A DNA stretch of 64,000 nt from a virus. The DNA lies in IMG/VR virus record IMGVR_UViG_3300045988_151219, positions 74,124-138,123 of that record; one strand, 5' to 3'. Position 1 is the first letter of the stretch; every line of letters starts with the position of its first letter. The position numbers and the translations under genes were made by a program. The notes under the pieces were generated by a model. The model saw only the letters and a program-made list of their open reading frames with translations. It made no database searches and was not told the DNA's origin. Below are positions 1,632 to 46,436 of this stretch, in pieces.

Positions 1632-3794
1632 CTACCTCAAAGATTTTGTTAATATCTGAAACACACATAATAACCCTGTCTGCAACTCTAAGTCAGATTT
1701 AAAAGAATCTTCTAAAATCCACGGAGCTAACAAGAACTTTATTATCTTAAGAGTATTAGCTCCAAATAAGCTGTTAATCTTCTTAGACTGCTCCGCATAA
1801 GGCGGATAATTAACCATGGCTTTTGTCATGTCGGCTAAAACTTCCTGGAAGTCCTGCTGCACAGTTACTAAGGGAAATTTTAATATACTGTCTATTGCTT
1901 TAAAACAGGTCTCTTTATCTTTCTTTGCAATCGATTCAAGAAATAGATAAATATAAGGATGTGCTGTCCGTACAGATTGTACAAAAGCATCATGACCTAT
2001 TAAGAAGTATTTGTCTAAAAGCATGTGTGCATTTCTCATATGCCCTCTTGAACGTTTGCAAATCACATCTATTACATTATCAGGTACTTCTTTGTTTAGC
2101 TCTTTAGAAATATTCTTTAAATTCTTGAACATTTCTTCTTTTGATATACCATCAAATTTAAGCTCTATAGAACGTGACCTTATTGTCTTGAGTAATTTCT
2201 CCGGATTAGTTGTAGCAAATATAAAGAAAACTTTTTTAGGAGCTTCTTCTATAATCTTAAGTAAAGCTGCTTGCCCCACACTCGAAATCAGTTGGGCCTC
2301 GTCCAGCACTACTACTTTATAGAATGAACCTGAGGAATAGGCAAACGTATCTCTTAGTTCTCTAATATGGTCTACAGAACCCATAGCCGCTGAATCAAGT
2401 TCCATATAATACGGCGTTGTATCTAAGTCTACTGTATTATCGTGATTTATTTCTCTGGCAAAAATTCTCGCACAAGTTGTATTGTGATTATATGTACCTT
2501 GGGCGTAAAATTCATGACACTTCTCTGTTGTTATGTCATAAACATCTTCTACTGTGTCAGTGTATGATAAAATCTTAGCATATGTATACCCTATTAATTC
2601 ATCAAAACATGACGGCAAATACCCTAATTCATTCTTAAGATTAATAAGAGTCCTTTCTGTAACACATCTACCCGCTCGTAAATTATGTAAAACAGCACGT
2701 ACTCTACTCGTTTTTCTTCCTTTTACATAATGTTCTAATTCTTCCGTCATTCTTCTTGTAACTGAAATAACATTTCTGGAATTAGCTGTATTTTTATCTT
2801 CTAAAATAAACTGTCTACTTGTCCATTTAAAGTCCTGTAAAGAATGATTTTTTATATATATTTTATAATAAACATTTCCTTTATATCGTCCGGTAGTTAG
2901 TGTCTTAGGTATTATCTTTGTAGCTACCCCTAAAGACATGAAAATCTCCTGGTACCCCTTTACCAGCTTTTCAGACTTGCTCATTAATTCAAACTGATTC
3001 TTTGAAATGCACCCATCAGTATCAAATAAGCCCTGAATGAATGCTTTCCTCGTCTCTACGTCTGTATTAAAAACCCATTCCGGAACATACTTATTTCCTG
3101 CTCCGTGCATGATTTCTATACTCATCTTGTCTTTTAAAGAAGACCTTATATTATAAACGTCTTCTTTTCTCTTATCTTTAGACAGCTTCCCGCTCCAGCC
3201 TACAATTCTTTTAAATTTCTTGCAAGCTTTGAGTGAACCACAATACCCTGCTGCTGTTCTGTCTCTGCTGCACCACCCATCAGAAAGCCACACGGCTTGT
3301 GCATAAGCTAAATCAGGACAGTGTTTAGCATTCTTAAACTCTATAGGTTTCTTAGGAAATAAAATATAATCTCCTATTTTTAAATTGCCTAATGGAAATA
3401 ATCCAATTTCCCCATCTTTAAAAGCTAAGACTTTGTGTCTTAGTGTTCCCCTTACATTATTATTTACATTTAAATTTACTGTACGGACTAAAGCTTCTCT
3501 TTCAAAATATTTTGCTACTATCTTGTCTTTACCAAACCTGCCCTCTGTCTCTCCTTTACAGTCTGTAAATCCCTCGTCTATCCCTTTACAGTAATCTCCT
3601 ATTTTTACATATCCATTCTCTGTTAAAATGCGTATATCTCCTGGAACGCATTTTCCACAACCATATTCTCCATAAAGTATAAGAGACCTCGGAGCTTCTT
3701 CCGGTTTAGCTACCAGTGATTTTAATATTTTTACATTTAAATCCTGCCCTACTACTTCATCAAAAGTTGTCGGTCTGAATTGCTGCGTAATCAA
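1632..3794 (-). CDS. Clamp-loader AAA+ ATPase (DnaX/RFC-like) interrupted by an intein
   Basis: Exteins join to GEYGCGK+TTCARIF, restoring Walker A GxxGxGKT. Walker B VVVLDEAQ, sensor-1 FIFATTN, and TIRSRS box are present. Confidence 0.85.
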   Translation of the reverse strand: MITQQFRPTTFDEVVGQDLNVKILKSLVAKPEEAPRSLILYGEYGCGKCVPGDIRILTENGYVKIGDYCKGIDEGFTDCKGETEGRFGKDKIVAKYFEREALVRTVNLNVNNNVRGTLRHKVLAFKDGEIGLFPLGNLKIGDYILFPKKPIEFKNAKHCPDLAYAQAVWLSDGWCSRDRTAAGYCGSLKACKKFKRIVGWSGKLSKDKRKEDVYNIRSSLKDKMSIEIMHGAGNKYVPEWVFNTDVETRKAFIQGLFDTDGCISKNQFELMSKSEKLVKGYQEIFMSLGVATKIIPKTLTTGRYKGNVYYKIYIKNHSLQDFKWTSRQFILEDKNTANSRNVISVTRRMTEELEHYVKGRKTSRVRAVLHNLRAGRCVTERTLINLKNELGYLPSCFDELIGYTYAKILSYTDTVEDVYDITTEKCHEFYAQGTYNHNTTCARIFAREINHDNTVDLDTTPYYMELDSAAMGSVDHIRELRDTFAYSSGSFYKVVVLDEAQLISSVGQAALLKIIEEAPKKVFFIFATTNPEKLLKTIRSRSIELKFDGISKEEMFKNLKNISKELNKEVPDNVIDVICKRSRGHMRNAHMLLDKYFLIGHDAFVQSVRTAHPYIYLFLESIAKKDKETCFKAIDSILKFPLVTVQQDFQEVLADMTKAMVNYPPYAEQSKKINSLFGANTLKIIKFLLAPWILEDSFKSDLELQTGLLCVFQILTKSLR
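2481..3650 (-). mobile_element. Intein with LAGLIDADG homing-endonuclease domain (390 aa, residues 49-438 of the clamp loader)
   Basis: Starts CVPGDIRILTENGYVKIGDY (block A), has TLRH (block B) and LAGLIDADG-like AVWLSDGWC and FIQGLFDTDGCIS, and ends YNHN followed by Thr+1. Junction codons were checked on the DNA (TGC at 3648-3650, AAT at 2481-2483, ACA at 2478-2480). Confidence 0.85.
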
Positions 3795-4884: not shown

Positions 4885-4894
4885 TATATTATAC
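4885..4894 (-). promoter_or_regulatory. Class B promoter-like motif (minus strand CAGTATAATATAAGAG)
   Basis: Plus-strand tatattatac sits in the gap between stop 4889 and ATG 4855; one of 10 intergenic copies. Confidence 0.45.
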
Positions 4895-7800
4895 TGTTTT
4901 CTTCGACAAATTGTACAGTAATAATCGTCCTGTACATGTAGGACACATCTTATTATAATCGTGCTTAAACAAAGAAAAAGTTAAAGAGTTTCCACACTTG
5001 CAGTTTGCATCTACTTTCATTGTCTGGTCTACCATCTGAAAAATACAGTCCTGTAAGCATTGACGGTATGACCTCTTCGTGATTGTGGACATTACTAAAT
5101 ATGGTGAAATATAAGCCGGCAGTGACATATAAACTAAAGCTCCCGCTTTGTACGGTATAGCTAATATCTTGTCTCTTAATTCCGGCATATACTTTGTTGT
5201 AAATGTCATCAGTGTATTAAGACTCTTTCCAGCTACTTTTATATTCCAGTCTGTATTTGCCATTTTGTTTTTAAAGAAGTCTACAGAATAATCGTTTATC
5301 ACTCCTAAGTATGTTATCTCGTTTTCTCTTGACTGCTTTAAAGCATCCGCATCATCATAAACAGCTGTAACTTGACACGACTCTAATTTACTGTTTACTT
5401 CTTCTAAATGTTGTAATAAATCCTGTGCTGATACTTTTTCTTTGAAAGATACATCAAAAAGCCAGCTGCCTGTATACCAACCTCTCTGGTCGTTAGCAGA
5501 TAATAATTGACAAGAGTTTCCTTCTACAGCAAAATACTTATACGCCAATCCAGGAACAGTTTTAAAAAATTGAGATGTAACGTAATACTGTAAAGCATCT
5601 CTATTATAAAAGAACCATTTAGGATTCTGCTTTACAATAAATCTAAGTATTGTAGCTTTTCTTCCTTCAGAAAAAGAATTAATGACATCATCGTAATTGC
5701 TTTCATCATATATCTTTCTGGTAGTCATATATTTTATATGCTTGGCGTCACACGTCTGGCATCCTAAACATGTAGCATCCTCATTGGCTAAAGTCTTTAG
5801 ACACAGATTAGCCGAAAAGTCCATTTTCTGTGTCCTTTCCCACCACATCTTTTTTACTCTGTCAGTGACCGCCTGCATATAATCATTGGGAAATATCCAG
5901 TCTTTAGGACGTGCATTACAAAAAAAGAACATATCTTCTATTCCATGTTCTTTTAAGACTTTTACTACTATTTCCTGGCAGTTTCTTCGAAACCTACTGT
6001 AATAAACTGCTCCTTGTTCAGACATCTTTACTAAACAATCAGTTCCTGCCGGACCAAAATCTATTAGCAACTGCTCTATCCAGGTTCCCCCAAAGATTGA
6101 ATGTATCCTTACTCTTACTTTTCTTTTCTTCATCTCTTCTATCAGATAAAGAAATTGATTGCCAGGATAAAATGACATTCTTGCAGTCTTTCTATCAAGA
6201 TATCTAAGTGCTATATTTGTATAATAAAGCAACGGAGTTATATTCATCTGTAGGGATGTTTTAGCTCCGATTTTATCCCTGATAGCGAACATCTCGTCTA
6301 CTTCTGAAATGCATTCATCTATGTCTTCTTTAGTTTCATATCCGGTTTGGATATACCCCATTTTTAAGTGCATGATTTTTAAGCGGTAGATATTTCTTGC
6401 CGCCTGCATTATAGTTTCTCTTGATAGATTTTTATTTAAGAATTGATTTCTTAGTCTGTTGGAAAATCCCTCAATAGGTGCAGATACTCTGGATAATCCT
6501 AATTTCTTTGCAATTAACAGCTGCTCCGGTGCATGTGCTATCACGTCTAACCGTTCATTTATCAAAGAAATTTTAGAAAAGTATTCCGCCCCTTTCTTTA
6601 TCATGTCCATAAACCTATAGTAGTAGTTTAGATTATAACTATAAAAAGTTACTTTATTAGCAGCAGAAGTCTTTCTTGCATACTCTAAATTCTTCTCTAC
6701 ATTATCTAAAGTACGTTCATGATAGTTTCCGGCTATAGTTGCTTCGTGACAATTGTGAGTATAAAGCATGTTGTAGCATGTCCGATGGTTAGGCAAGGTC
6801 TCTGTAGTATATGTTACTTCTTCTCTTCCTAATTTCTTCACAGACATAACATATACAGGAAAATAATCCCCGCTCGCTAAAGCTTTAAAGATTCTCGGTA
6901 AAGAACTATAAGAATATTTCTTTAATGTCTCTATAGAAATATTATTTCCTTGATATGATACAAAAGCTTTGTTATCTTTATATAAACATAAGTGAATATA
7001 TTCTCCTGTGATTTCTACAAATTTTCCTACCATACGATATAACAGTTGAATATCTGATTTAAACTTATATTCTGTTATCTTAGTTAAATCGTTTTCTACA
7101 TACTCTAAATATTTCTCTATGCTCTCTTTAGCATAATAGAATACATGGTCAGAAACTCTTTTGTTTTTAAAGTCTTCTTCGTATCTCTCTTTTAGCTCTT
7201 TTTCAGACGGAATATACTTGCCATAAGATTCTAAACCCATCTTGATATAAAAGACATCTCTTATATTGATGTCTTTTGCTAAGACTTCTTCTTCTCTTCC
7301 TTCAGATAAAATCATCCTCATCATGCGATGGTTTTCTGAACAGGTGAATTTAGAACCATCTGATAAAGTAATTTCCATTAAAGGCTGCTTTGAAGCCTGT
7401 TTTACTGTTGTATATTGCTTTTCGTCTTCTCTTAAAAATCTTGTAGTAGGCACAGCCCCCACGTCTAAAAGAGACTCTATATTCTCAAGCCCTCTTCCTG
7501 TCGGTATCTTAGTTCCTGCCGGTACTGAAAAAGAACATAATGTAGAAGCCCCTGAACAGCCTGAGGATACCTGCACATCTATAGATGAACAGTTTGACCC
7601 CGCTAAGTGAAAAGTCTTTAAAGGAAAGCCTTCCCATTCATCAAGCTCAAGTTTATTTACTTGCACTCTTTCCGGAAGTCTTTCGTCTAAAGGCTTAATT
7701 GATTTTATTGTATAGTTGTCTTCCGCATAATCCCATTTATATTTATTGGGATAAAAAATATAGTGGTTTAAAATATTCCTCGATATTAAATACTCCATGA

Positions 7801-8473
7801 ACCCATTAGTATCATGCAGATTTTTACCCTCTTTTACTTTATAGTTGTATGCACTTTCAATCAGTGTAGGTAAAATAACTTCTCCATACCCATGAATAGT
7901 CATGTCTACTAAAGATGAGCCTAAGTCTTTCCCCTCTTCATCGTAAACATGTCCATAAAGTATCGGGGCTTCCGTTGCAGAAGCTCCCCCCATTATAAAA
8001 GGCGGAATCCTTAAATCTTTTGCTCTTCCCTCTACCGTGTAAGGTATGCCTGATTTCTTGAGTATTATCGGAATATGAAACATTTCCGGAATTAAAGCCA
8101 TTGATACTAATACTAAGTCATAGTCTTTTACCGGATGGTGGGAACAGTTACCAAAAAGATAAGGAATGTGGTTTTCTTCATAAACCTTTTCATTCCCCTC
8201 TTCGATAAAGTAACAGTTGTCTACAAAGATATCTTCGCCATGCTTTTCATGACATAGCCAATTCAAGCAGCTAAAGGAGTTAGATACTGTCTTGTGTGAC
8301 CCTGGCAGTAATAACACTACAAGTATTTTTAGTTTTGATTTATCCCATTTCTGTATAGAATCTTGGTTATTGTCTACCGCATACAGATATTCAGGATAAT
8401 TCATCTTCTTCATATTATTATCAAGAAATCTCTCTATCTCTTCATGAGTGACTTCTATTAAATCATTCATCAC
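4889..8473 (-). CDS. Giant radical-SAM protein of the TIGR03960/TIGR03936 (radical SAM + radical-SAM-linked) type, interrupted by an intein
   Basis: N-terminal B12-binding-like layout (KILVVLLLPGSHK..., YDLVLVSMALIPE..., PPFIMGGASATEAP). Cys cluster GCSGASTLCSF|C HEATIAGNYHER after intein removal. Core VSAPIEGFSNRLRNQFLNKNLS and LKMGYIQTGYETKEDI resemble FAPEAGTQRLRDVINKG and YFMIGLPTETDEDI of that family as I recall it. Confidence 0.6.
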   Translation of the reverse strand: MMNDLIEVTHEEIERFLDNNMKKMNYPEYLYAVDNNQDSIQKWDKSKLKILVVLLLPGSHKTVSNSFSCLNWLCHEKHGEDIFVDNCYFIEEGNEKVYEENHIPYLFGNCSHHPVKDYDLVLVSMALIPEMFHIPIILKKSGIPYTVEGRAKDLRIPPFIMGGASATEAPILYGHVYDEEGKDLGSSLVDMTIHGYGEVILPTLIESAYNYKVKEGKNLHDTNGFMEYLISRNILNHYIFYPNKYKWDYAEDNYTIKSIKPLDERLPERVQVNKLELDEWEGFPLKTFHLAGSNCSSIDVQVSSGCSGASTLCSFSVPAGTKIPTGRGLENIESLLDVGAVPTTRFLREDEKQYTTVKQASKQPLMEITLSDGSKFTCSENHRMMRMILSEGREEEVLAKDINIRDVFYIKMGLESYGKYIPSEKELKERYEEDFKNKRVSDHVFYYAKESIEKYLEYVENDLTKITEYKFKSDIQLLYRMVGKFVEITGEYIHLCLYKDNKAFVSYQGNNISIETLKKYSYSSLPRIFKALASGDYFPVYVMSVKKLGREEVTYTTETLPNHRTCYNMLYTHNCHEATIAGNYHERTLDNVEKNLEYARKTSAANKVTFYSYNLNYYYRFMDMIKKGAEYFSKISLINERLDVIAHAPEQLLIAKKLGLSRVSAPIEGFSNRLRNQFLNKNLSRETIMQAARNIYRLKIMHLKMGYIQTGYETKEDIDECISEVDEMFAIRDKIGAKTSLQMNITPLLYYTNIALRYLDRKTARMSFYPGNQFLYLIEEMKKRKVRVRIHSIFGGTWIEQLLIDFGPAGTDCLVKMSEQGAVYYSRFRRNCQEIVVKVLKEHGIEDMFFFCNARPKDWIFPNDYMQAVTDRVKKMWWERTQKMDFSANLCLKTLANEDATCLGCQTCDAKHIKYMTTRKIYDESNYDDVINSFSEGRKATILRFIVKQNPKWFFYNRDALQYYVTSQFFKTVPGLAYKYFAVEGNSCQLLSANDQRGWYTGSWLFDVSFKEKVSAQDLLQHLEEVNSKLESCQVTAVYDDADALKQSRENEITYLGVINDYSVDFFKNKMANTDWNIKVAGKSLNTLMTFTTKYMPELRDKILAIPYKAGALVYMSLPAYISPYLVMSTITKRSYRQCLQDCIFQMVDQTMKVDANCKCGNSLTFSLFKHDYNKMCPTCTGRLLLYNLSKKTV
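6752..7528 (-). mobile_element. Intein (259 aa, Ser1 class, residues 316-574) with no recognisable endonuclease motif
   Basis: SVPAGTKIPTGRGLENIESL fits block A (xLxxGTxIxT), TCSENH fits block B, and EEVTYTTETLPNHRTCYNMLYTHN ends in HN followed by Cys+1. Junction codons were checked on the DNA (TCA 7526-7528, AAT 6752-6754, TGT 6749-6751). Confidence 0.75.
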
Positions 8474-8482
8474 TTTCTCCTA

Positions 8483-8995
8483 CTATATGTCAAGGATTAA
8501 ATCGTCAAGCTGCTGTTCCAATGAATATTCTTTAGACGGACTGTCAAAAGGGTCAGCTAAAGAACTAAAGATATCCTCCTGTGTCTCTTCTATCTTATAT
8601 TCTTTCTGGTCATCTTTTGTATCGTCTAAAAGCTCCTGCGGAAACTTGTCAAACATCTTCTTTAATTCTTCTTCCGGATATTTAACTGCTTCCTCTATAG
8701 TTGCTTTCGCTCTTTTCGATTTCTTCTCTTCTTTGTTTATCTTTGTCTTCTTAAACTCAATACCAATTTGTTTGAGGAAAGGAACAAGTTCACCCTCGTA
8801 TGCTTGCTTCTTCGCCCCCATTGAAGTTTCTTTGTCTTTCAGCCCTAAGTAAACTTCATAGCATCTTTTGACCCTTTCCTCAAACGCTCTCAACTGCTCT
8901 TTAGGTATTGCGTCATATAAAGCTTTATTTACTTTTATTCCCTTTGAAAAAGATACCGCTCCCGATATCTTCTCTGTTGTCTCTATCATATTCAA
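8483..8995 (-). CDS. Hypothetical K/E-rich protein
   Basis: 170-aa ORF with AGGAGGAA RBS; no motif recognised. Confidence 0.5.
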   Translation of the reverse strand: MNMIETTEKISGAVSFSKGIKVNKALYDAIPKEQLRAFEERVKRCYEVYLGLKDKETSMGAKKQAYEGELVPFLKQIGIEFKKTKINKEEKKSKRAKATIEEAVKYPEEELKKMFDKFPQELLDDTKDDQKEYKIEETQEDIFSSLADPFDSPSKEYSLEQQLDDLILDI

Positions 8996-9363: not shown

Positions 9364-10560
9364 TTAAACACTTTCTTTATATAATATGGCGTCATATTCG
9401 TTAGACGATAAACCCATTCCTTTTTCTGTCAGATAAAAAGCAATGGACGACTGTGTGCTAAAAGCTTTGAGGAAAATATAAAGCAGTTTAGACGATATAG
9501 TAAAGTTGGAACTCATCGGAGTAGTATCTCCTTCTTTCGACCCTACCAGTGTGAATTTTGAATCGCCTTTCTTTGATTTCAAAATAAATTCAACACCTGA
9601 ATCATTATAGTTAAATTCTACTTTACCTGTACTTGTCGGCAAGATAGATGAAATATCCACCAGCTTATAAAGCTGTGCATAATCAATATAGCATTTTCCT
9701 TTTGCCGCATGGATTATATTATCTATTCCGTCTCTGATAGCCTGCGGTACTGTTGAGTCTGATACTAAGAAAGCATACTCAAAATTGGAACCTTTAATGA
9801 CTTTCCTCTTTGTCACTACTGTCTCGTCTGTCTCCAATATCTCAAGCTCTTCTTCTACCTCTGATAAGACATTCCTAAGCACGTTTAAATCTTTCACTTT
9901 TAAATCCATATTGCTGAAAGATTTTCTGCATGAAATGTTACCCCACATATAAGAAGCATACGCTATGTCTTTGTCACACAGAATACGTCTTTCTGCCGGT
10001 GATACTGCATTATTAACTACTGGCGTAAAGTCTTTTACTACAGACAGCAAGTCTATTGAGTTAAGAGACTGCTCTTTGTGAACACTGTCTTTAAACATAA
10101 ATTTACTGTTGTCTACTGTATATGTTTCTAAAACGATATCTCCACCAAACAGCTTTAATTTATAATTGTCTCCGTCTTTGAAAATAACCGTCTTATTCCC
10201 TATAGCTCTTGAAAGCTTGTCTAAATAGTCTGTCGGTATGACGATATCTTCCGTCAGCACATTCTCTACATTTATTCTATCTACTTCATACTTGAAATAA
10301 ACGTCAAAGTCTGTAATATAGAATTGTACTTTGTCTCCTTCAGGATGTATCAAAATAGCTTTTGAAATGACGTCTCTTCCTGATACTACAGATAATGTCT
10401 TCGCTATTTTTATTAAAAACTTGAACTGCACCCCTGAAAACTTAATGTGAGGTGCTGTAATCTCTTCTTCTACCGTTCCAAAGTTGGACAAGTCTACGTC
10501 TTCCGTATTGTCCATTATAATATTGTCTAATTCGATTTCATTGAACACTGTCTCTTCCAT
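9364..10560 (-). CDS. Sliding-clamp (DnaN beta-like) protein
   Basis: 398 aa. The layout FKFLIKIAKTLSVVSGRDVISKAILIHPEGDKVQFYITDFDVYFKYEV...IVIPTDYLDKLSR resembles DnaN domain I, and the gene sits between nuclease and clamp-loader genes. Confidence 0.5.
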   Translation of the reverse strand: MEETVFNEIELDNIIMDNTEDVDLSNFGTVEEEITAPHIKFSGVQFKFLIKIAKTLSVVSGRDVISKAILIHPEGDKVQFYITDFDVYFKYEVDRINVENVLTEDIVIPTDYLDKLSRAIGNKTVIFKDGDNYKLKLFGGDIVLETYTVDNSKFMFKDSVHKEQSLNSIDLLSVVKDFTPVVNNAVSPAERRILCDKDIAYASYMWGNISCRKSFSNMDLKVKDLNVLRNVLSEVEEELEILETDETVVTKRKVIKGSNFEYAFLVSDSTVPQAIRDGIDNIIHAAKGKCYIDYAQLYKLVDISSILPTSTGKVEFNYNDSGVEFILKSKKGDSKFTLVGSKEGDTTPMSSNFTISSKLLYIFLKAFSTQSSIAFYLTEKGMGLSSNEYDAILYKESV

Positions 10561-11539
10561 GCTGGATTCTCCTTACTATTCCTCTTTGCTCTAAATAATA
10601 AATAATTAAATCTTTCGCTTCTTTGCCGGCAGTTATATTGTCTAAAATAGAATATACTGATGAATTACTTCTCTTCTTCGACATCATCTCTATCAAGGTG
10701 TCAAAGTTATTCGTAAGCTTGCTTGTGAGTTTAGTGATATTCTCACTCTCCATATCTTCACTGCTAAATACCAGCTTGGGGTCTGTTATCTTCTCCTGAT
10801 ACCTTTGATATTGTATTCCGTCTCCTAATGTCAGCACATCAATATTAAAATAATCCCTCTTGATATTATAATCTTTAGATGAACCTCTCGACATAGACCC
10901 AGGACGAATTATACTCTGGTCTCCTACATATTCTATCGGATAAGGAACGTGGTCATGCCCTAATACATAGTAATCATACCCATATTTTGTGACGTCTTCT
11001 TTGTATATCGTCTCAAATCTTTCTCCATACGGAAAATTGTAGTATGAGTGTGAGATGAGAATATTATACTCTCCTCGGTTTGGAAGCTCATTCACAGCTT
11101 TAATAGGTGTATTATAGTCATTCCCTACTAAGACATACTTATCACCATTTATTGTATATTCCAGTGTTACTAAATGCTCTATCACTTTTGCGTTATAAAG
11201 CAACCCTAATGCTGAACGGTGCAGATTAGCTACATTCATATATTGTATATCATGGTTGCCTGTCACTGTTAAAGCTCTAATGCCCGCTTGCTTATATTCA
11301 TTGAAGACTTCTATTACTTTATTTAAATAGTCGAACGGCTGGTGAGGTTGGTGGAAGATGTCTCCTAAAAAGATTACCGCGTCGATACCGCTCTTGCTCG
11401 CAAAGACTTTAATCTGTTTTAATTTCTCTAGCAATGCGTTGGGATAATCGTCTATTCTGCTACGGGGTGCTTGGTAATTTAAATGCAAATCTCCGATGAA
11501 TATTATATTCTTTTCAGTTAAGCTCATGATACCGACCAC
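10538..11539 (-). CDS. sbcD: Mre11/SbcD-type nuclease (metallophosphoesterase)
   Basis: FIGDLHL, LGDIFH, TVTGNHD, ISHSY, GHDHVP motifs. The true start is probably the internal MSLTEK. Confidence 0.85.
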   Translation of the reverse strand: MVGIMSLTEKNIIFIGDLHLNYQAPRSRIDDYPNALLEKLKQIKVFASKSGIDAVIFLGDIFHQPHQPFDYLNKVIEVFNEYKQAGIRALTVTGNHDIQYMNVANLHRSALGLLYNAKVIEHLVTLEYTINGDKYVLVGNDYNTPIKAVNELPNRGEYNILISHSYYNFPYGERFETIYKEDVTKYGYDYYVLGHDHVPYPIEYVGDQSIIRPGSMSRGSSKDYNIKRDYFNIDVLTLGDGIQYQRYQEKITDPKLVFSSEDMESENITKLTSKLTNNFDTLIEMMSKKRSNSSVYSILDNITAGKEAKDLIIYYLEQRGIVRRIQHGRDSVQ

Positions 11540-12167
11540 CCTCTACTTCGTATGTCTTCACCGCATTATGCATAAGACGCTCGTCATGCGTGATAAGTAC
11601 GAATATGAACCCTAACCTCTTGGCTATGTCTTCTATAAACATCTTGAGATAAATTATATATTTGTCCGACAGCTGCGTGAACGCTTCGTCTAAAAATATA
11701 ATAGGCGACAGTCCGTGATATTGTATGTAGAATACCTGGAACAAAAAACCTATAGTAACTAATACCCCGCCACCGACTGAATCCTTTAGAGATGACTTTA
11801 AAATGTCTTCTCCATTCTTTTCAATCAAATAAAGGTTTGCTTGCTTTAAGTTACGCTTGTCTTCTATCTCTATCTCTATTTTATATTCTTTGTCATAAAA
11901 GATAGTCTTTAAACCCTCATTGATGAAGTTTGCTGCCTCGTTAATGTGTTCAGTAGCCATCGTCTGTATGAGGTTCTTTAAAAGGTTTAAGCCCTCTTCT
12001 TGCAATGTACTTTTCTTAGTAAGCTCTTCGTATTCTTTCTTCTTCTCTTCATAGTTAAGCTTGAACTGGCTTAGCACTCGCTTCGTGTTCGTGATTGAGC
12101 TTTTCAGACTGATACTTTGCATTTTTGCTTGGTTGTAACGTGATATTATCTCTTCGGCGTTTCCCAT
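11514..12167 (-). CDS. sbcC: Rad50/SbcC ATPase, C-terminal piece
   Basis: N-terminal coiled coil, then signature-like SVGGG, Walker B/D-loop IIFLDEAFTQLS, H-loop LITHDE. Confidence 0.75.
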   Translation of the reverse strand: MGNAEEIISRYNQAKMQSISLKSSITNTKRVLSQFKLNYEEKKKEYEELTKKSTLQEEGLNLLKNLIQTMATEHINEAANFINEGLKTIFYDKEYKIEIEIEDKRNLKQANLYLIEKNGEDILKSSLKDSVGGGVLVTIGFLFQVFYIQYHGLSPIIFLDEAFTQLSDKYIIYLKMFIEDIAKRLGFIFVLITHDERLMHNAVKTYEVEGGRYHELN

Positions 12168-12170
12168 CTG

Positions 12171-12425
12171 TCAATCTTCCTTAATATCTAAAGAAAGACT
12201 TTCTTCGGCTTTCGCTAAAGCTCTCTCTATTTCTTCACTTAACCTCTGCACTTCGGTCTCTGCTTCTTCCAAAGTGTTAAGGTTATATTTTTCTTTTAGC
12301 TCTTTAAGTAACGCTCCCTCTCTTTCTTTTAGTACAGACAGCTTCCCGCTTAATTCGACCTGCTCTTCTTTCAGCTTGTCTCTTTTCTCGGTTAGCTCTC
12401 TGAACCGCTCTTTCATTTCTTCCAT
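12171..12425 (-). CDS. Coiled-coil piece between the Rad50 halves
   Basis: 84 aa of pure heptad-like E/K/L sequence with its own AGGAGGAG RBS. Its stop TGA lies 3 nt before the next ATG. Confidence 0.5.
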   Translation of the reverse strand: MEEMKERFRELTEKRDKLKEEQVELSGKLSVLKEREGALLKELKEKYNLNTLEEAETEVQRLSEEIERALAKAEESLSLDIKED

Positions 12426-12438
12426 CTTCGCTCCTCCT

Positions 12439-13665
12439 TTATTTTAAGATTGAGTGGCAGTATGGACAGGCTTTGAATGTTGTCAGTTCTTCCTCCACTT
12501 CTTTTTGAGTTGAAAGTGTCTTTGTCAGAAGCTGCCCCGCTGCCACTCTTTCTTTGAATACCTGTGATAGTTCCTTTGTTAGCTCTTCTATATATAATAC
12601 TTTGGCTGGGTCTATCTTTTTCAGGCTCTCACTATTTTTTAGCTTTTTGTTTATTTTTTGTATCTTGCTCTCTATTTTCTCTATATTATTCTTTGTCTCT
12701 TTTTCTTCTTCTATCCTCTTTGACATTAGCTCTGCTGTCTCAATCTTCGTTGTTAGCTTGCTTAAGTCTTCTGTGTTCTGTATCTTATTCTCTATATTCT
12801 TTATATTATCTTTTTTCTCTTTTATTGCTTCTTTTACGTTTTTAGTTTCTTTAATTATTGTATTAATTGCTTCTATCTTCTCTATATCTTCTTTTTTAGG
12901 TAATTTGATATTATTTAGCTTATTCATTATATTGGTATTTTTGTTTTCTATCTTCTCTATATTATTCTTTGTCTCTTTGATGTCTTTTTCTATATTGTGT
13001 ATGTGATTTAGTTCGTTAGCTTTACTGTCTAATTTTAAGATTGTATCGGCTGCTTCTTCGGACTCTTTTAGTTTATTGAGTCGGTTGCTTTCTTCTAAAG
13101 CAAGATTTTTGTTGGTGTCCATGGTATTTTTACAAAGCAAGATGTCTCGCTTGATACCTTTGAAGTCCTGCACCATGTCTGCTTGGACTTCCCCTAAATT
13201 TTCAAATTCAGAAGAGTATGAAAAGAATTTGAAAAGTTCTGATGGTGTCCTATTCAGTAAAAATGGATATGCCATCTGTGAATAAAAGTTAAGACGCTCT
13301 TTTGTTCCTGTAACGTCTACTTCTTTTATACCAAACGTATTCGCTAATTCCTCAAGCTGATTTCTTCCTATCTTAGAATATGTTTTGCCATCAATTATAT
13401 AAGTAGTCTTGATAGATGAATCTTTGTCTCTCGCCCATATGAAATAATGATTCCGATAAGAGAACTTGACAGCAGCTTTTTTAGCTCCCTTAGTAATGTG
13501 TGATTCTCTGGCTAAATTAAAAATTGATGTTTCTAACGCTCTAAATAAAGAAGATTTACCCTGATTGCTGGAACCTAAGATTAAGTTCAGTCCAGGCTTA
13601 AATTCTATTTTAGCATTTTTTATTCTTTGATAGTTTCTAATTTCAATCTTGAGTGAGTTATCCAT
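12439..13665 (-). CDS. sbcC: Rad50/SbcC ATPase, N-terminal piece ending at the zinc hook
   Basis: Walker A LILGSSNQGKSSLFRAL, a long K/E/N coiled coil, and C-terminus ...FKACPYCHSILK (CxxC hook, 12457-12468). Confidence 0.8.
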   Translation of the reverse strand: MDNSLKIEIRNYQRIKNAKIEFKPGLNLILGSSNQGKSSLFRALETSIFNLARESHITKGAKKAAVKFSYRNHYFIWARDKDSSIKTTYIIDGKTYSKIGRNQLEELANTFGIKEVDVTGTKERLNFYSQMAYPFLLNRTPSELFKFFSYSSEFENLGEVQADMVQDFKGIKRDILLCKNTMDTNKNLALEESNRLNKLKESEEAADTILKLDSKANELNHIHNIEKDIKETKNNIEKIENKNTNIMNKLNNIKLPKKEDIEKIEAINTIIKETKNVKEAIKEKKDNIKNIENKIQNTEDLSKLTTKIETAELMSKRIEEEKETKNNIEKIESKIQKINKKLKNSESLKKIDPAKVLYIEELTKELSQVFKERVAAGQLLTKTLSTQKEVEEELTTFKACPYCHSILK

Positions 13666-14664
13666 TTATGTTTTTATCTCTCCTTTCTCCAGTTCAACAA
13701 TATGTTTCCCTATATCATATACTACGTTTACTGTTACAGCATTTCCTGCTTGTTTATATAATTGTTCAGTGCTATTACATAATAAAGCTTTATGAAACTG
13801 CTCGTCAGTAAACCCTTGTAGCCCCCAGCACTCCTTTGGAGTAAGCTTTCTTATATAACACTTAACTCCATTAGATAATAAAACTCCGCTTATCTCACCT
13901 TTATGGTTGCTTGTTCCTTTATTGCAACCAGTCGTAAGACATCTTGCATATTCAGTTAGTTTTACTTCTTTCTCTGAAAGGTCTATGAATTGACAGTATA
14001 AACCTGTTTTTGCTCCTATACCTCCACCTTGCGATGTTATAGTACAAGCCAAATCTAAATTATATACTCTATCTCCTTGAGAACCATTTATAATTTCTTT
14101 AAGAGTTCTCTCACTTTTTCTTGTGACAGGAAGTAGCGACTGTCCTTTGTGTTCTCCATTATATCCCGCAATGTACACTCGCTCACGGCTTTGCGGAACT
14201 CCGTAGGCTTTTGAGTTGTAAACACGCCATTCAAGACTGTACCCTCTCGCAGCCATTTCAGACAAGACCTGGAAGAATCCCCAGCCATCATCAATTGAAA
14301 GCAAGTTCTTAACGTTTTCAGCGATAAGCCATTTGGGTCTATTTCCGCCTGCTTCGTCAAGAAGCCGCATAATCTCATAAAATAAGCCACTTCTGGTTCC
14401 TCGTTTGATACCTGCTTGTTTCCCTGCAATGGATACATCTTGGCATGGAAACCCGAAGGTCCATATGTCGGCTTTTGGTATTTTGTCGCCTCTAACTTTT
14501 TGGACATCATTTGCAAACCATAATCCCTCCGTGTTATATAAAGCTCTATAACTTCTTTGAGCATATTTATTAAATTCACACCAGCCAATACATTTCATTC
14601 CCGCCTTCTCAAACCCTGAATGAAATCCACCTATGCCAGCGAAAAAGTCAATAAAAGTTAGCAT
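13666..14664 (-). CDS. dcm: DNA cytosine-5 methyltransferase
   Basis: FIDFFAGIGGF (I), GFPCQDVS (IV), ENVKNL (VI), QSRERVYI (VIII), GNAVTVNV (X). Confidence 0.95.
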   Translation of the reverse strand: MLTFIDFFAGIGGFHSGFEKAGMKCIGWCEFNKYAQRSYRALYNTEGLWFANDVQKVRGDKIPKADIWTFGFPCQDVSIAGKQAGIKRGTRSGLFYEIMRLLDEAGGNRPKWLIAENVKNLLSIDDGWGFFQVLSEMAARGYSLEWRVYNSKAYGVPQSRERVYIAGYNGEHKGQSLLPVTRKSERTLKEIINGSQGDRVYNLDLACTITSQGGGIGAKTGLYCQFIDLSEKEVKLTEYARCLTTGCNKGTSNHKGEISGVLLSNGVKCYIRKLTPKECWGLQGFTDEQFHKALLCNSTEQLYKQAGNAVTVNVVYDIGKHIVELEKGEIKT

Positions 14665-20035: not shown

Positions 20036-20849
20036 TAGTCTTAATCAACCAGGCTCTATCTTCTAAAGAGATACTCTCACTACGTTCTAATATCATAGGA
20101 ATGTTATTCTCTAAACAATAATGAGCTATCCGTAAAAGTTGAAGTTGCAGTTTACCACTATTAATATACGTTTCTGAATGCCTATCCAGATGTGACCCCT
20201 GCTTAACAAAATAAGGAATTGAGTTTAAGTGAACCAAAGAAGCATTGCTTAAAACCTTGTTCAAATAAGTCTTGTCTGTTAAGTCATCTCCATCAGCGTA
20301 AGCATGTTCCGTATCATATGTTATATATACGTTTTTGTAGTTTCCCTGTAACTGGAGTAAGTTCTTTACTACACCTATCTTAGTAGACTTTTTAGACCCT
20401 GGGTCGTTCTCATAAGTAAATTTTATTTTCTTTGAGCTTTGTCTATAAAATTCCTGACTAATATAAGAAAGCTCTTTGATATTTTCCTCATAAGACAGTT
20501 CAGGATTATATGCTCCGCAATGAGATACAAGATAAATGTTTATTCCATACTTGTCTACCATAAAAGACATTTTCTTATCTATATCTAAACAGTATTTTAA
20601 GATAAAAGCTTTATGAGTTTCTTTAATAAGAGTAAAAATAAAAGGTAAATGTATTACTATATTCACATTATCACTTGAACTTTTATTCTTTACAAGATAT
20701 TTACTCATTTCTAAGAATCGCTGATATCTCGGAACTTCCCATTGTGTAGGTGAAGATAAAAACATTTGAAACGTTCTTACTCCTTGAGTAAAAGCTTCTT
20801 TAAAGAAATCTACATTATCAACATGTACTCCGATTAAGTCGTACTGCAT
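20007..20849 (-). CDS. AP endonuclease IV-like (xylose-isomerase TIM barrel)
   Basis: VIHLPFIF, VSHCGAY, YENDPGS, YDTEHAYADGDDL, LVHLNSIP...GSHLDRHS parallel the Nfo metal-ligand motifs. Confidence 0.65.
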   Translation of the reverse strand: MQYDLIGVHVDNVDFFKEAFTQGVRTFQMFLSSPTQWEVPRYQRFLEMSKYLVKNKSSSDNVNIVIHLPFIFTLIKETHKAFILKYCLDIDKKMSFMVDKYGINIYLVSHCGAYNPELSYEENIKELSYISQEFYRQSSKKIKFTYENDPGSKKSTKIGVVKNLLQLQGNYKNVYITYDTEHAYADGDDLTDKTYLNKVLSNASLVHLNSIPYFVKQGSHLDRHSETYINSGKLQLQLLRIAHYCLENNIPMILERSESISLEDRAWLIKTIEDKFYAAK

Positions 20850-22075
20850 ACCTTGCCCTCTTTTTTCTGTGACTTAGCTCTTATATCATAAATAGCATTT
20901 TTAAGCTCATCAGCCTTATCCGTTTTCTCCCACGGGAAAATAACATTTCCAAAGAACCCTATTTTAGCCGTCATAGCATAATTCCAATCTGTAGGATGTC
21001 TTAAGTTAAGCTCTCTTTCTATCCCTGCCGGCGTTAAGTCAAATACCTGTCTAACTGCTCTTAAGATAATAGATGTAGGTATGTCTGATGTTCCAAAGCA
21101 TTTTATATTAACGGAACAGGGATTTTCTACACCAATAGCATAAGAAAGCTGTACTTCTACTTTATGAACAAGACCGGAAGCTACTAAATTCTTTGCTACA
21201 TATCTTGCCATTAATGCTCCTGATATATCCTGCTTGGTCGGGTCTTTACCATTCATAGAACCCCCACCAGCCGGAAAATACATACCATAAGAATCTACAA
21301 TAATTTTTCTTCCTGTTAATCCAGAATCTACAGCCGGACCAAACTCTGTAAATGACCCTGTAGGATTGATATAAAATCTCTTAACATCTTTAATATCAAA
21401 TCCGCTTGACTGTAATATCGGTGCAATGATTGTCTCTTTTACTCTTTTCCTTAACTCTGTTATTCCTATGTCTTTTGTTGAAGCTATAGAAATAACCACC
21501 GTGTCTACAATAAGTTTTTCTAATCCTCTATTATATCTTATTGTTACTTGAGCTTTTCCATCAGGATAAAAGGGATTGCCTAAATCAGCTAAAGCTACCT
21601 CGGTCATTCTGCATGTAAGCTTTCTTGCTAATTCAATAGGCAGCGGCATAAAGTTAGGTGTTTCATCAATAGCTCCCCCACATACTAACCCCTGGTCACC
21701 CGCTCCCTGTGTTTCAGACTGCTTTCCTCTAACATAAGTATCTTCAACACCTTGGTTAATCTCTTCTGATTGATTAGTTACTCTTACTTCTATTGATACT
21801 GTGTCATAACTAAAGCCTTTAGATGGGTCTATATAACCTAATGATTTAATAGCTTCTCTTGCTACTTTTTCATAAACACAAAAATACTTAGACTTTACTT
21901 CCCCCATAATAAGTAAAAAATCTTTACATACTGCACATTCAATTCCTACGTGTGCTTCTGAATCGTTAGCTAAAATATCATCCATAATTGACATAGCGAT
22001 AAAATCACACATTTTGTCCGGATGTCCTACACATACCGATTCAGAAGTAAATAAATAGCCTGTAACCTTATTCAT
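20834..22075 (-). CDS. metK: S-adenosylmethionine synthetase
   Basis: FTSESVCVGHPDKMCD, GAGDQGL, DGKAQVT, GGGSMNGKDPTKQDISGALMARYVAKNLVASGL. Confidence 0.95.
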   Translation of the reverse strand: MNKVTGYLFTSESVCVGHPDKMCDFIAMSIMDDILANDSEAHVGIECAVCKDFLLIMGEVKSKYFCVYEKVAREAIKSLGYIDPSKGFSYDTVSIEVRVTNQSEEINQGVEDTYVRGKQSETQGAGDQGLVCGGAIDETPNFMPLPIELARKLTCRMTEVALADLGNPFYPDGKAQVTIRYNRGLEKLIVDTVVISIASTKDIGITELRKRVKETIIAPILQSSGFDIKDVKRFYINPTGSFTEFGPAVDSGLTGRKIIVDSYGMYFPAGGGSMNGKDPTKQDISGALMARYVAKNLVASGLVHKVEVQLSYAIGVENPCSVNIKCFGTSDIPTSIILRAVRQVFDLTPAGIERELNLRHPTDWNYAMTAKIGFFGNVIFPWEKTDKADELKNAIYDIRAKSQKKEGKVCSTT

Positions 22076-31654: not shown

Positions 31655-31885
31655 CTACTCCAGGAGGAATCCATTCAAGCTCTTCAAATCAATTGAATCT
31701 CCTTCAGAATCCTTAAGCCGATTTATATAATTTTGATAAAAGTTTGGATTAAACCACTCTATAGGTGTTGAAATATCTTCTAACCCTTCTATTTCTCCTA
31801 AGATATCATCAGGACTGTTTTCTGATATTATCAAATCATCTATAGTCATAATATTATCTGCTTTCTTTAACAAGCTGTTCAACAA
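31655..31885 (-). CDS. Hypothetical acidic protein
   Basis: 76-aa ORF ending in a double TAG TAG; overlaps the adhesin 3' end by 32 nt. Confidence 0.4.
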   Translation of the reverse strand: MLNSLLKKADNIMTIDDLIISENSPDDILGEIEGLEDISTPIEWFNPNFYQNYINRLKDSEGDSIDLKSLNGFLLE

Positions 31886-46399: not shown

Positions 46400-46436
46400 A
46401 ATATATATAAATAAGAGTGTAGAAATTTACACTCTT
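46400..46436 (-). terminator. Possible terminator overlapping the polA stop
   Basis: AAGAGTGTA-(6 nt)-TACACTCTT followed by an A/U-rich tract; the U-tract is weak. Confidence 0.4.

Follow-up and report, generated by a model that had tools for sequence, protein, structure and literature searches.

A phage Rad50/SbcC-type ATPase encoded as three separate proteins, with the break just past the putative zinc-binding CxxC motif

In canonical Rad50/SbcC proteins (P. furiosus Rad50, E. coli SbcC, T4 gp46), the two lobes of the ABC-ATPase head are joined on one chain by an intramolecular antiparallel coiled coil. How the arm and hook signal to the ATPase head, and whether one continuous hairpin is needed, has long been asked of Mre11-Rad50 and of SMC proteins in general. 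It is established that separate N and C fragments of Rad50 can re-form the head, as in the two-chain PDB entries 1F2T, 1F2U, 1II8, and 3QKR; these constructs are engineered truncations without the arm and hook. Mre11-Rad50 fusions are also known (Mimivirus R555 type, and gp8 of Bacillus phage 0305phi8-36), and for 0305phi8-36 one P-loop NTPase segment was not seen (Yoshida, Claverie and Ogata 2011; PMC3175470). RloC, which carries a CxxC hook (PMC2610378), and the OLD/GajA/LmuB-type ATPases have an ABC-ATPase head with a coiled-coil insertion. Each of these defence proteins is a single chain, fused to or paired with other effectors.

We analyzed a stretch of 64,000 nucleotides of viral DNA (the window; IMG/VR record IMGVR_UViG_3300045988_151219, positions 74,124 to 138,123). 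The Rad50/SbcC-type DNA-end-processing ATPase of this phage is encoded as three separate proteins, and the cut lies just 3′ of the putative zinc-binding CxxC. Three minus-strand ORFs, 13665-12439 (408 aa, here the N piece), 12425-12171 (84 aa), and 12167-11514 (217 aa, here the C piece), are followed by an overlapping gene for an Mre11/SbcD-like nuclease. As in the canonical systems, the head is bipartite, with Walker A and the Q-loop in the N lobe and the signature, Walker B, and H-loop in the C lobe. Also shared with canonical Rad50/SbcC and its partner (Mre11, SbcD, gp47) are a long helical arm, a CPxC motif ending the ascending arm, an adjacent calcineurin-type nuclease, and a phage replication and recombination context; the neighboring genes here encode RecA, a sliding clamp, a clamp loader, polymerases, and a helicase. 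Unlike the canonical proteins, the phage ATPase consists of three polypeptides, its lobes are not joined on one chain, and most of the descending strand is missing. It further differs in its tandem arm modules of ~47 aa, a conserved extra subunit of ~80 aa, and often two added His/Cys after CPxC. We found no paper in the literature describing a three-piece Rad50 with a post-hook break, and the arrangement is apparently undescribed. We consider it likely that these genes encode a genuine, conserved three-gene phage Mre11-Rad50 (SbcCD / T4 gp46-gp47 type) DNA-end-processing machine, assembled as proposed below.

The ORFs and junctions, read directly, bear out the proposal of an initial annotation that a Rad50/SbcC-type ATPase is encoded here in pieces. 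In the N piece (12439-13665, minus strand), a Rad50-type N-terminal ATPase lobe is followed by a long helical arm in several segments, with CPYC at the C-terminal end; the ATG of the N piece directly abuts the stop of the upstream methylase (TAA ATG). A 13-nt spacer (12426-12438, minus strand) leads to the gene for the conserved small partner, a helix-loop-helix protein of 84 aa (12171-12425, minus strand), and contains a Shine-Dalgarno sequence, AGGAGG, at 12433-12438, 7 nt before the ATG. The gap to the C piece is 3 nt (TGA CAG ATG). The C piece (11514-12167, minus strand) consists of a ~70-aa coil and a Rad50-type C-terminal ATPase lobe, and is overlapped by 14 nt by the start of the 329-aa nuclease gene (10538-11527, minus strand; ATG at 11527). 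No minus-strand terminator was found inside the operon. The initial annotation gave each piece its own ribosome-binding site, which has to be qualified: only the 84-aa gene has a strong Shine-Dalgarno sequence, the C piece has a weak site (AAGGA, ~10 nt upstream), and the N piece has the TAA ATG junction. The translational coupling also proposed there fits the window and does not extend to the family, as in several phages the three genes are non-adjacent, with other genes or tens of kb between them.

The N piece carries a Rad50-like Walker A lobe. It passes the curated threshold of Pfam AAA_23 (41.2 bits, cut-off 27), and its best PDB profile matches are Rad50 N fragments (E = 5e-8). An AF2 model made with a 13-sequence alignment has pLDDT 77-88 in the head lobe, and the top 10 Foldseek matches are all Rad50 (E = 2.6e-6, probability 1.00), and not GajA or RecF. 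NCBIfam Rad50/SbcC equivalogs match both the N and C pieces over short stretches only, far below their cut-offs. The Walker A/P-loop reads GSSNQGKS (aa 31-38; 13552-13575, minus strand), with G31, G36, and K37 invariant in N-piece alignments, and Q130 of the Q-loop is conserved along with it. In a cluster of 18 near-identical N pieces, all members are 408 aa except one that is cut by a contig end.

The other end of the N piece reads ...FKACPYCHSILK. CPYC (aa 400-403; 12457-12468, minus strand; C400, P401, and C403 invariant) is followed by the five residues HSILK and the stop, so the break does fall exactly after the CxxC, as first annotated. The hook cysteines are likewise on the N chain alone: it is the only one of the three proteins with a cysteine near a terminus, and the 84-aa and 217-aa proteins are cysteine-free. 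In every hook-bearing lineage the N piece ends 4-17 aa past the CPxC. Two further His/Cys follow the motif in the tail in 18 of 26 lineages; the zinc site could therefore be completed within one chain and might not be an intermolecular hook. One actinophage N piece, gene 155 of Microbacterium phage Magritte, is without the CxxC.

The C piece carries the complementary lobe, in which the signature, Walker B, and H-loop are found. Its match to phrog_15167, a stand-alone family of 211 positions, has E = 3e-14. Aligned with the P. furiosus Rad50 C fragments 3qkr_B and 1ii8_B, its profile spans the entire lobe (E = 2e-5 to 5e-5). These E-values are modest; in the part from Walker B to the H-loop, similar scores are obtained for ABC-transporter nucleotide-binding domains. 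Against Pfam SMC_N the score is 20.2, below the cut-off of 40. The signature-motif equivalent is SVGGG (aa 130-134; 11766-11780, minus strand), and the C-piece alignment shows its G132 and G134 to be conserved or invariant. Walker B is IIFLDE (aa 156-161; 11685-11702, minus strand), with D160 and E161 invariant, and the H-loop His194 (11586-11588, minus strand) is also invariant. Nearly all of the best 150 of 6289 representative matches are 190-235 aa long, and the C piece is always stand-alone among these 150. The neighboring nuclease matches Pfam Metallophos (E = 5.8e-14) and the SbcD-like phrog_100, with partial NCBIfam Mre11 matches under the cut-offs, and a Metallophos gene also occurs with the split ATPase in related loci.

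With their lobes on separate chains, the N and C pieces resemble the Rad50 catalytic domain constructs, and they align to the two kinds of chain in these structures. We predict that the two phage lobes join non-covalently into one ABC-ATPase head, as such laboratory constructs already do. The phage split differs from the constructs in being natural and conserved, in keeping a long arm, in having its zinc motif on the N chain only, and in including a third protein.

All three parts are present in 26 non-redundant loci and in further phage records, a recurrence that is far beyond chance. A relative with 93% identity keeps every stop and start of the three genes. Synonymous and non-synonymous codon changes relative to it number 36 and 14 in the N piece, 14 and 5 in the small protein, and 38 and 10 in the C piece, which indicates that all three genes are under purifying selection. 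The same architecture occurs at 31% identity in JGI contigs, in loci L009-L020, in Bacillus phage 0305phi8-36, in prophage phBC6A51, and in prophages across Bacillota; in Magritte and in the huge phage LR745208.1 the genes are dispersed. Such recurrence in dozens of distant phages and prophages marks this as a real way of building a Rad50-type ATPase. The initial annotation had judged the arrangement to be something other than damage, and the relatives agree with it: a single continuous ORF was found in none, and every one is split at the same place. An assembly or sequencing error, or a decaying pseudogene, draws on the general expectation that split genes can be artefacts, and is refuted by the comparative data. 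Dozens of independent assemblies have the same ORF lengths (408, 81-86, and 217 aa), the codon changes argue for selection on each ORF, and the same breakpoints appear in 26 or more divergent lineages, some of them represented by finished genomes of phages and bacteria.

Could the pieces be rejoined by TGA read-through, a programmed frameshift, or protein trans-splicing? In the window the 84-aa ORF and the C piece share a frame, with TGA CAG alone between them, and inteins are detected in two other genes. The comparative evidence largely refutes such recoding, to which we give hardly any weight. The spacer between the N piece and the small-protein gene is 13 nt in the window and 15 nt in the 93%-identical relative, so their frame relation is not conserved. 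In L005, L009, L010, and L011 the ORFs of the small protein and C piece overlap or lie in different frames, and in L004 the codon between them is TAA instead of TGA. In several phages whole genes or many kb lie between the parts, and none of the three proteins has a Pfam intein or Hint match.

The 84-aa protein is predicted to form a helix of ~46 aa, a loop (KYNLNTLEE), and a helix of ~30 aa. It belongs to no family in Pfam, PHROG, NCBIfam, or PADLOC, and no sequence similarity was detected between it and either the N arm or any Rad50 post-hook coil. A profile search recovered 95 homologues, all of 53-97 aa and all but one of 81-97 aa; none lies within a larger protein. The small protein accompanies both ATPase pieces in every lineage for which enough sequence was read, at identities down to ~20-25%, with its length and helix-loop-helix pattern tightly conserved. 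In nearly all lineages its gene is directly upstream of the C piece, overlaps it, or is nearby. From this conserved synteny we infer that it belongs to the ATPase complex. It might instead have an unrelated role, for example as a regulator or as an adaptor for DNA ends or the clamp, and simply be carried along in the operon, in keeping with its lack of a family and of similarity to Rad50 and with its position beside the clamp gene, and not the C piece, in LR745208.1 and L022/L023. Its retention at such low identity, with size and fold pattern unchanged, and, in most lineages, the placement of its gene just upstream of the C piece or in overlap with it make an unconnected role improbable.

The helical arm of the N piece (aa 157-396; 12478-13197, minus strand) is modeled by AF2 as helices at aa 157-250, 259-296, 300-343, and 354-396 with short loops between, at low or medium confidence (pLDDT 43 for a single-sequence concatenation, and 46-69 for the distal helices with the 13-sequence alignment). 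It contains an internal tandem repeat with a 92-aa offset (z = 7.9 versus shuffles), and the boundary of this duplication (about aa 302) coincides with a helix break. Direct DNA repeats of one family (D1) at 12633-12702, 12753-12822, and 12909-12978 (minus strand; 66-80% identity) encode repeated ...KETKNNIEKIE.K... segments, and GC content drops to 21-28% at 12700-13000 within the arm. Across the family the ascending arm is 201-342 aa long and varies by whole contiguous blocks of 47-48 aa.

These lengths bear on how the chains fit together. The initial annotation supposed that they simply rebuild the canonical antiparallel coil. In its full form this reading has a 1:1:1 complex in which the N arm rises to an apical zinc hook, the 84-aa protein supplies the strand that descends from the hook, and the C-piece coil makes up the remainder. 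The gene order (N piece, small protein, C piece) mirrors the canonical Rad50 chain, the CP[LYTI]C(G) of the N pieces resembles the Rad50/SbcC hook consensus, and the last N-piece helix (aa 354-396) is close in length to the first helix of the small protein. Together, the small protein and C coil come to ~150 aa, which would be a plausible strand length in a phage Rad50 with short arms. However, the arm is longer than this sum by 52-198 aa in all 26 loci. Its block-wise shifts are not compensated, as the partners stay constant (correlation of arm with small-protein length, -0.46), and the small protein, as noted above, shows no detectable similarity to a Rad50 post-hook coil. We therefore regard a rebuilt canonical hairpin as unlikely, and the supposition of the initial annotation is not supported in the form given.

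A second way to place the excess is for the distal N arm to fold back as its own antiparallel hairpin, which would bring the CPxC part-way down the arm beside the N terminus of the C piece, with the 84-aa protein splinting the nick between the chains. Subtracting the C coil from the N coil leaves about twice the small-protein length in seven of the first 11 lineages, the boundary of the 92-aa duplication in the window's arm falls at a helix break, and a small protein of constant size whatever the arm length would suit a splint. The ratio of about two fails in the prophage group (2.6-3.5), and indels of single 47-48-aa modules among prophage N pieces would re-register the whole hairpin. Packing of the distal helices is not confident in AF2 (pTM 0.34 with the 13-sequence alignment). 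Such a folded-back arm seems to us doubtful.

In the assembly that we propose, the ~70-aa coil of the C piece would pair antiparallel with the base of the N arm, where the Mre11-like nuclease would also dock. The 84-aa protein would be a third stoichiometric subunit, supplying or stabilizing a further ~80 aa of partner strand; it would lie either near the zinc motif, a position suggested by the gene order, or just above the coil of the C piece. In what is the most speculative part of the proposal, the remainder of the N arm would be one to four modules of ~47 aa that lack an encoded partner and that no dedicated descending strand can pair. This distal arm would most likely self-associate in register with the arm of a second N piece in a dimer, with the zinc site closing the tip; this would explain the free gain and loss of single modules. 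We tentatively suggest, as a possibility short of an even chance, that the arm has a different architecture from that of Rad50: an open-ended, modular rod of 47-aa units pairing with a second N arm, with a mostly single-chain zinc cap (CPxC...HxH or CxH), and with the ~80-aa protein as a new obligatory subunit that joins or splints a short antiparallel neck with the C piece. If the modular rod is real, the arm could evolve by addition of single modules, which is impossible for a hairpin-type SMC/Rad50 arm, and coiled-coil continuity through the hook would be dispensable for Mre11-Rad50 function.

The three-piece family is a natural experiment on the role of arm and hook: it combines a post-hook break, a mostly missing descending strand, a modular arm, and an extra subunit, and yet is maintained under purifying selection in many phages and prophages. 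The parts are small and separately expressible, and culturable systems are available in B. cereus prophage phBC6A51, Bacillus phage 0305phi8-36, and Microbacterium phage Magritte. Thousands of database proteins that at present bear the names "AAA family ATPase", "chromosome segregation ATPase", "exonuclease", or "hypothetical protein" could be reannotated as components of a single complex.

PADLOC returned generic matches to LmuB, GajA, and PtuA. Unlike the single-chain defence proteins of the RloC and OLD/GajA/LmuB types, the phage ATPase has as its partner an Mre11-like nuclease in a replication module.

The top BFVD structural match of the N piece is gp8 of 0305phi8-36 (A7KV18), which contains the same kind of N piece and ends just past a CPTC. 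This N piece and Mre11 form one fusion protein in 0305phi8-36; in the window the two are separate proteins. The ATPase segment missing from 0305phi8-36 in 2011 is a separate gene, gp5, and is thereby accounted for; gp7 is the small helical protein.

The initial annotation placed three consecutive ORFs of a split Rad50/SbcC-type ATPase in the window, and direct reading of the sequence locates them at the coordinates claimed, on the minus strand. The first, the N piece (13665..12439, 408 aa), contains a P-loop (GSSNQGKS, residues 31-38) followed by a long helical region and has the C-terminal end ...FKACPYCHSILK; its CPYC motif lies at 12457-12468, and a TAA stop follows 5 residues on. A 13-nt spacer, with AGGAGG 7 nt ahead of the next ATG, leads to a gene for a small protein of 84 aa (12425..12171, minus strand). 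The C piece (12167..11514, minus strand, 217 aa) begins after TGA CAG and contains SVGGG at the position of the signature motif, a Walker B motif (IIFLDE), and an H-loop (ITHD). It overlaps by 14 nt a gene starting at 11527 for a calcineurin-type phosphoesterase of 329 aa. Cysteine is absent from both the 84-aa and the 217-aa protein.

The three ORFs lie within a replication and recombination module that includes a C5 methylase, an HD protein, RecA, a clamp, an intein-bearing clamp loader, two family-A polymerases, DnaB, and SNF2. No terminator-like hairpin was found on the minus strand at 13700-11500 and the flanking genes on both sides share that strand, so co-transcription of the region's genes is likely. 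The region's best promoter-like match (TTGACA-18-GATAAT, 11/12, minus strand, 12145-12174) is made of the stop codon of the 84-aa gene and the spacer (GAT TGA CAG), and transcription from it would begin within the C-piece ORF. It is probably a chance match, given 30 such sites observed versus 22 expected. The lengths of related contigs (145-147 kb) point to a phage genome of ~146 kb.

The N piece scores above the Pfam AAA_23 cut-off (41.2 bits versus 27) and matches "exonuclease" and SbcC-like families of PHROGs. The best PDB matches of a profile of its homologues are Rad50 N-terminal fragments (E from 5e-8). The head lobe is confident in an AF2 model made with a 13-sequence alignment (pLDDT 77-88), and all of the top ten matches of this model in a Foldseek search of the PDB are Rad50 (10/10), with RecF, SMC, RecN, and GajA next. 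The C piece matches phrog_15167, a profile only 211 positions long and therefore a family of stand-alone proteins. The C-piece profile aligns over the whole lobe with the Rad50 C fragments 3qkr_B and 1ii8_B, which were expressed as separate chains. The nuclease ORF is Metallophos/SbcD-like by Pfam and PHROG, and its NCBIfam Mre11 matches are partial and below the cut-offs. For the 84-aa protein, Pfam, PHROGs, NCBIfam, and PADLOC gave no family match, and its profile found only generic helical bundles among PDB sequences, the Rad50 hook not being among the matches. We rejected homology of the small protein to the repeat unit of the N-piece arm or to the C coil (hhalign 4.6% and 13.6%), as the scores were no better than those of reversed-sequence controls.

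An assembly error would be indicated, according to the initial annotation, by relatives with one continuous ORF. The outcome clearly favours a real split: 26 non-redundant loci hold all three parts, and the N piece ends 4-17 aa past CPxC in 26/26. Sequence error is also contradicted by the constant ORF lengths, synonymous excess, and kept stops and starts of near-identical relatives. Every one of the more than 25 C-piece variants at 94-97% identity is 217 aa long, small-protein variants are 81-86 aa, and 17 of the 18 members of the N-piece cluster have 408 aa (the exception is truncated by a contig end). Synonymous/non-synonymous codon differences from L026, a 93%-identical relative that keeps both stops and all starts, are 36/14 in the N piece, 14/5 in the small protein, and 38/10 in the C piece. 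Recoding might instead rejoin the pieces during expression. The first spacer is 15 nt in L026 versus 13 nt in the window, so the frame relation is not conserved. Among the lineages compared, only the clade of the window and the related locus L004 (TAA ATG) have the small gene in frame with the C piece; in L005, L009, L010, and L011 the two genes overlap or differ in frame. A Pfam search detected no intein signal in the N piece, small protein, or C piece. We reject recoding on these shifting frame relations, the overlaps, and the lack of an intein signal; the split is almost certainly real, conserved, and functional.

The window carries an ordinary representative of a large, hitherto unrecognised family. 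The region had no megablast match in the phage collection, and tblastn queries with single pieces recovered only a few cultured phages. A peptide-pattern search of IMG/VR did not find relatives of the small protein, and a scan of genome contigs with the C-piece alignment gave no matches; the distant C-piece alignment was too divergent for the pattern search, for which a single prophage C piece was used instead. N-piece homologues at 31-46% identity are 397-470 aa long, each terminating just past CPxC. JGI contigs (31% identity) keep the gene order of the window, encoding proteins of 421 aa, 88 aa, and 215 aa and a Metallophos protein, also flanked by RecA and clamp genes. The same three parts occur in L009, L011, and the IMG/VR loci L012-L020. 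The C-piece profile matches 6289 cluster representatives at E <= 1e-3, 321 of them at E <= 1e-30. Among the best 150 of the 6289 matches nearly all are 190-235 aa, and the few longer ones have unrelated extensions. The small-protein profile finds 95 proteins of 53-97 aa, all but one of 81-97 aa and none (0/95) inside a larger protein. They share a pattern of two helices, the first of ~45 aa and the second of ~30 aa, with a K-[YF]-G/N-V-x-[ST]-x-E-E-A-type loop between them.

Gene arrangement varies across the family. Bacillus phage 0305phi8-36 encodes Mre11 fused to the N piece (gp8, C-terminal end ...KCPTCNQEVSEHAVNEMLEHIA), the small protein (gp7), an unrelated protein (gp6), and the C piece (gp5). 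The B. cereus prophage phBC6A51 has an N piece annotated "SbcC" (BC1852, 518 aa, C-terminal end ...VCPLCESPMSFDHSH), a small protein (BC1854, 77 aa), a C piece (BC1855), and SbcD (BC1857). The BC1852 cluster has 207 members from B. cereus group genomes, labelled "AAA family ATPase" or "Nuclease SbcCD subunit C". Prophages carrying the phBC6A51 type were found in Bacillus, Sutcliffiella, Lysinibacillus, Brevibacillus, Neobacillus, Paenibacillus, Sporomusa, Lachnospiraceae, and other Clostridia. In some prophages ~2.8 kb of other genes lie between the N piece and the small gene. The huge phage LR745208.1 has a clamp gene between the small gene and the C piece, with the N piece ~8 kb upstream. 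Genes for the N piece (155), small protein (245), and C piece (2) are scattered over the genome of Microbacterium phage Magritte. One contig of sample ERR11318533 has the N piece, followed by unrelated genes, and another has the small/C pair; L010 has a small protein and a C piece without an adjacent N piece.

Two observations concern the neighbours of these genes. Two related phages, L010 (4113-4751) and L013 (4153-4818), encode a predicted membrane protein immediately ahead of the small protein, in the place expected for the N piece; it is assigned to the formate/nitrite transporter family by a Pfam match in L010 and by sequence resemblance in L013. The C piece of LR745208.1, which comes from a 485-kb uncultured phage, is followed closely downstream by TnpB/IS200-IS605 OrfB-like ORFs (6564-8803 of locus L002).

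The motif CP[LYTIVM]C is invariant in all N pieces bearing a hook and is similar to the Rad50/SbcC hook. The short tail contains two more potential ligands in 18/26 lineages (e.g., CPLCESPMSFDHSH, CPLCEQAVAHTH, CPLCNQPIKGDGVCTH, and CPLCEQPHAGGAC), one in 4/26, including the window with CPYCH, and none in 4/26. With two further potential ligands in the tail, a four-ligand site could form within one chain in many lineages. The classical Rad50 hook has one zinc common to two chains. The motif may serve to dimerise the arms, to clasp a partner, or both. The Magritte N piece (gene 155, 2489-3541 of its locus, 350 aa), annotated as hypothetical, has a Rad50-like head and a helical arm, and no CxxC is present at its end or elsewhere. 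By these features we assign it to the split family as a member without a hook.

We compared three lengths per locus: the arm from the conserved head end to the first hook cysteine, the small-protein core, and the C coil from its start to the helix re-entering the head. Arm boundaries are estimates from alignments and medium-confidence AF2 secondary structure. Across the 26 loci, a C coil of ~67 aa and a small protein of 73-84 aa stand against an arm of 201-342 aa, which exceeds all encoded partner coil by 52-198 aa (median 122). The values for the window are an arm of 238 aa versus partners of 83 and 67-74 aa. Longer arms do not go with longer small proteins (r = -0.46).

The arm consists of tandem repeats. 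In seven lineages the best off-diagonal self-alignment has a period of 40-53 aa; in the window the period is 92 aa (two units), and the repeat is also detectable there at the DNA level. Z-scores against shuffles reach 14, values that coiled-coil periodicity can inflate. Firmer evidence comes from aligned prophage N pieces, in the arms of which unbroken gaps of 48 aa and 47 aa give length classes of ~247, 294, and 341 aa. The small protein (77 aa) and C piece (211-216 aa) do not change with them. Part of the repeated, K/N/I/E-rich arm in the window (12700-13000) has a GC content of 21-28%, versus ~35% nearby. AF2 gave distal helices of pLDDT 46-69 in the N-piece model (pTM 0.34), and a model of the concatenated N piece, small protein, and C piece made with no alignment (pLDDT 42.8) was uninformative except for helix boundaries.

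The proposal of the initial annotation that the three chains simply rebuild one hairpin is not supported as it stands, because the arm is 52-198 aa longer than its partners and changes module by module while they stay constant. Two copies of the small protein per N arm would suit 7/11 phage lineages, in which the ratio is ~2.0, but we reject this reading as a general rule on ratios of 2.6-3.5 in the prophage group and on the single-module indels. We also rejected the idea that extra proteins of 99-100 aa in phBC6A51 and L019 fill the missing strand, as L019 has one and is among those with the shortest arms. These extra genes (BC1853, 3290-3592 of the phBC6A51 locus L025; 6390-6689 in L019) lie between the N piece and the small protein, and their presence is unrelated to arm length. 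Tolerance of single-module insertions would point to pairing with an identical copy in register and not with a different strand or a fixed self-hairpin.

We propose that the lobes of the N and C pieces combine non-covalently into one Rad50-type head, as in engineered two-fragment Rad50 heads, and we consider it very likely that the two pieces reconstitute the head. The C coil would pair with the base of the N arm, where the Mre11-like nuclease would dock. The ~80-aa protein is probably a subunit of the complex; as a third subunit it may supply or stabilise a further stretch of partner strand. The other 1-4 modules of the arm might self-associate between the two N pieces of a dimer, with the zinc site as a tip cap, although we regard this zinc-capped N-to-N pairing as tentative and rather doubtful. 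A role of the complex in end processing during recombination-dependent replication, likened to that of T4 gp46/47, would fit the nearby RecA, clamp, and polymerase genes.

Rad50/SbcC is the nearest family: the head lobes, the nuclease partner, and the motif agree, whereas the single-chain intramolecular hairpin that defines Rad50/SbcC is absent from the split ATPase. NCBIfam and PADLOC searches gave nothing beyond generic ABC-ATPase similarity. We found no description of a naturally split Rad50/SbcC in the full-text literature searched, coverage of which is incomplete, so that an earlier description elsewhere is possible. A broad review of jumbo phages handles SbcC as a single ABC ATPase (PMC7824862). 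A P-loop NTPase segment reported as "not observed" in 0305phi8-36 (Yoshida, Claverie and Ogata 2011, PMC3175470) is, by our assignment, gp5, encoded three genes downstream.

Several other genes of the window, all on the minus strand, merit mention. The clamp-loader gene (DNA_pol3_delta2/AAA) contains an intein with a LAGLIDADG homing endonuclease, and a 1194-aa radical-SAM protein also matches intein splicing (1632-3794 and 4889-8473). The gene immediately ahead of the N piece (13666-14664) encodes a C5 cytosine methylase of 332 aa without an intein. The same methylase in L026 (1-1509, >660 aa) has Hint/intein and LAGLIDADG matches, so intein presence differs between the two. The genome encodes a full-length S-adenosylmethionine synthetase (MetK, 20834-22075). 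Two family-A DNA polymerases (40739-42523, 594 aa; 46436-48583, 715 aa), both with a 3'-5' exonuclease domain, lie <6 kb apart. A 597-aa ORF (31854-33647) has the YadA head, stalk, and membrane-anchor domains of trimeric autotransporter adhesins, which to our knowledge is unusual for a phage; its domain content suggests a Gram-negative-type host envelope or use in tail fibres.
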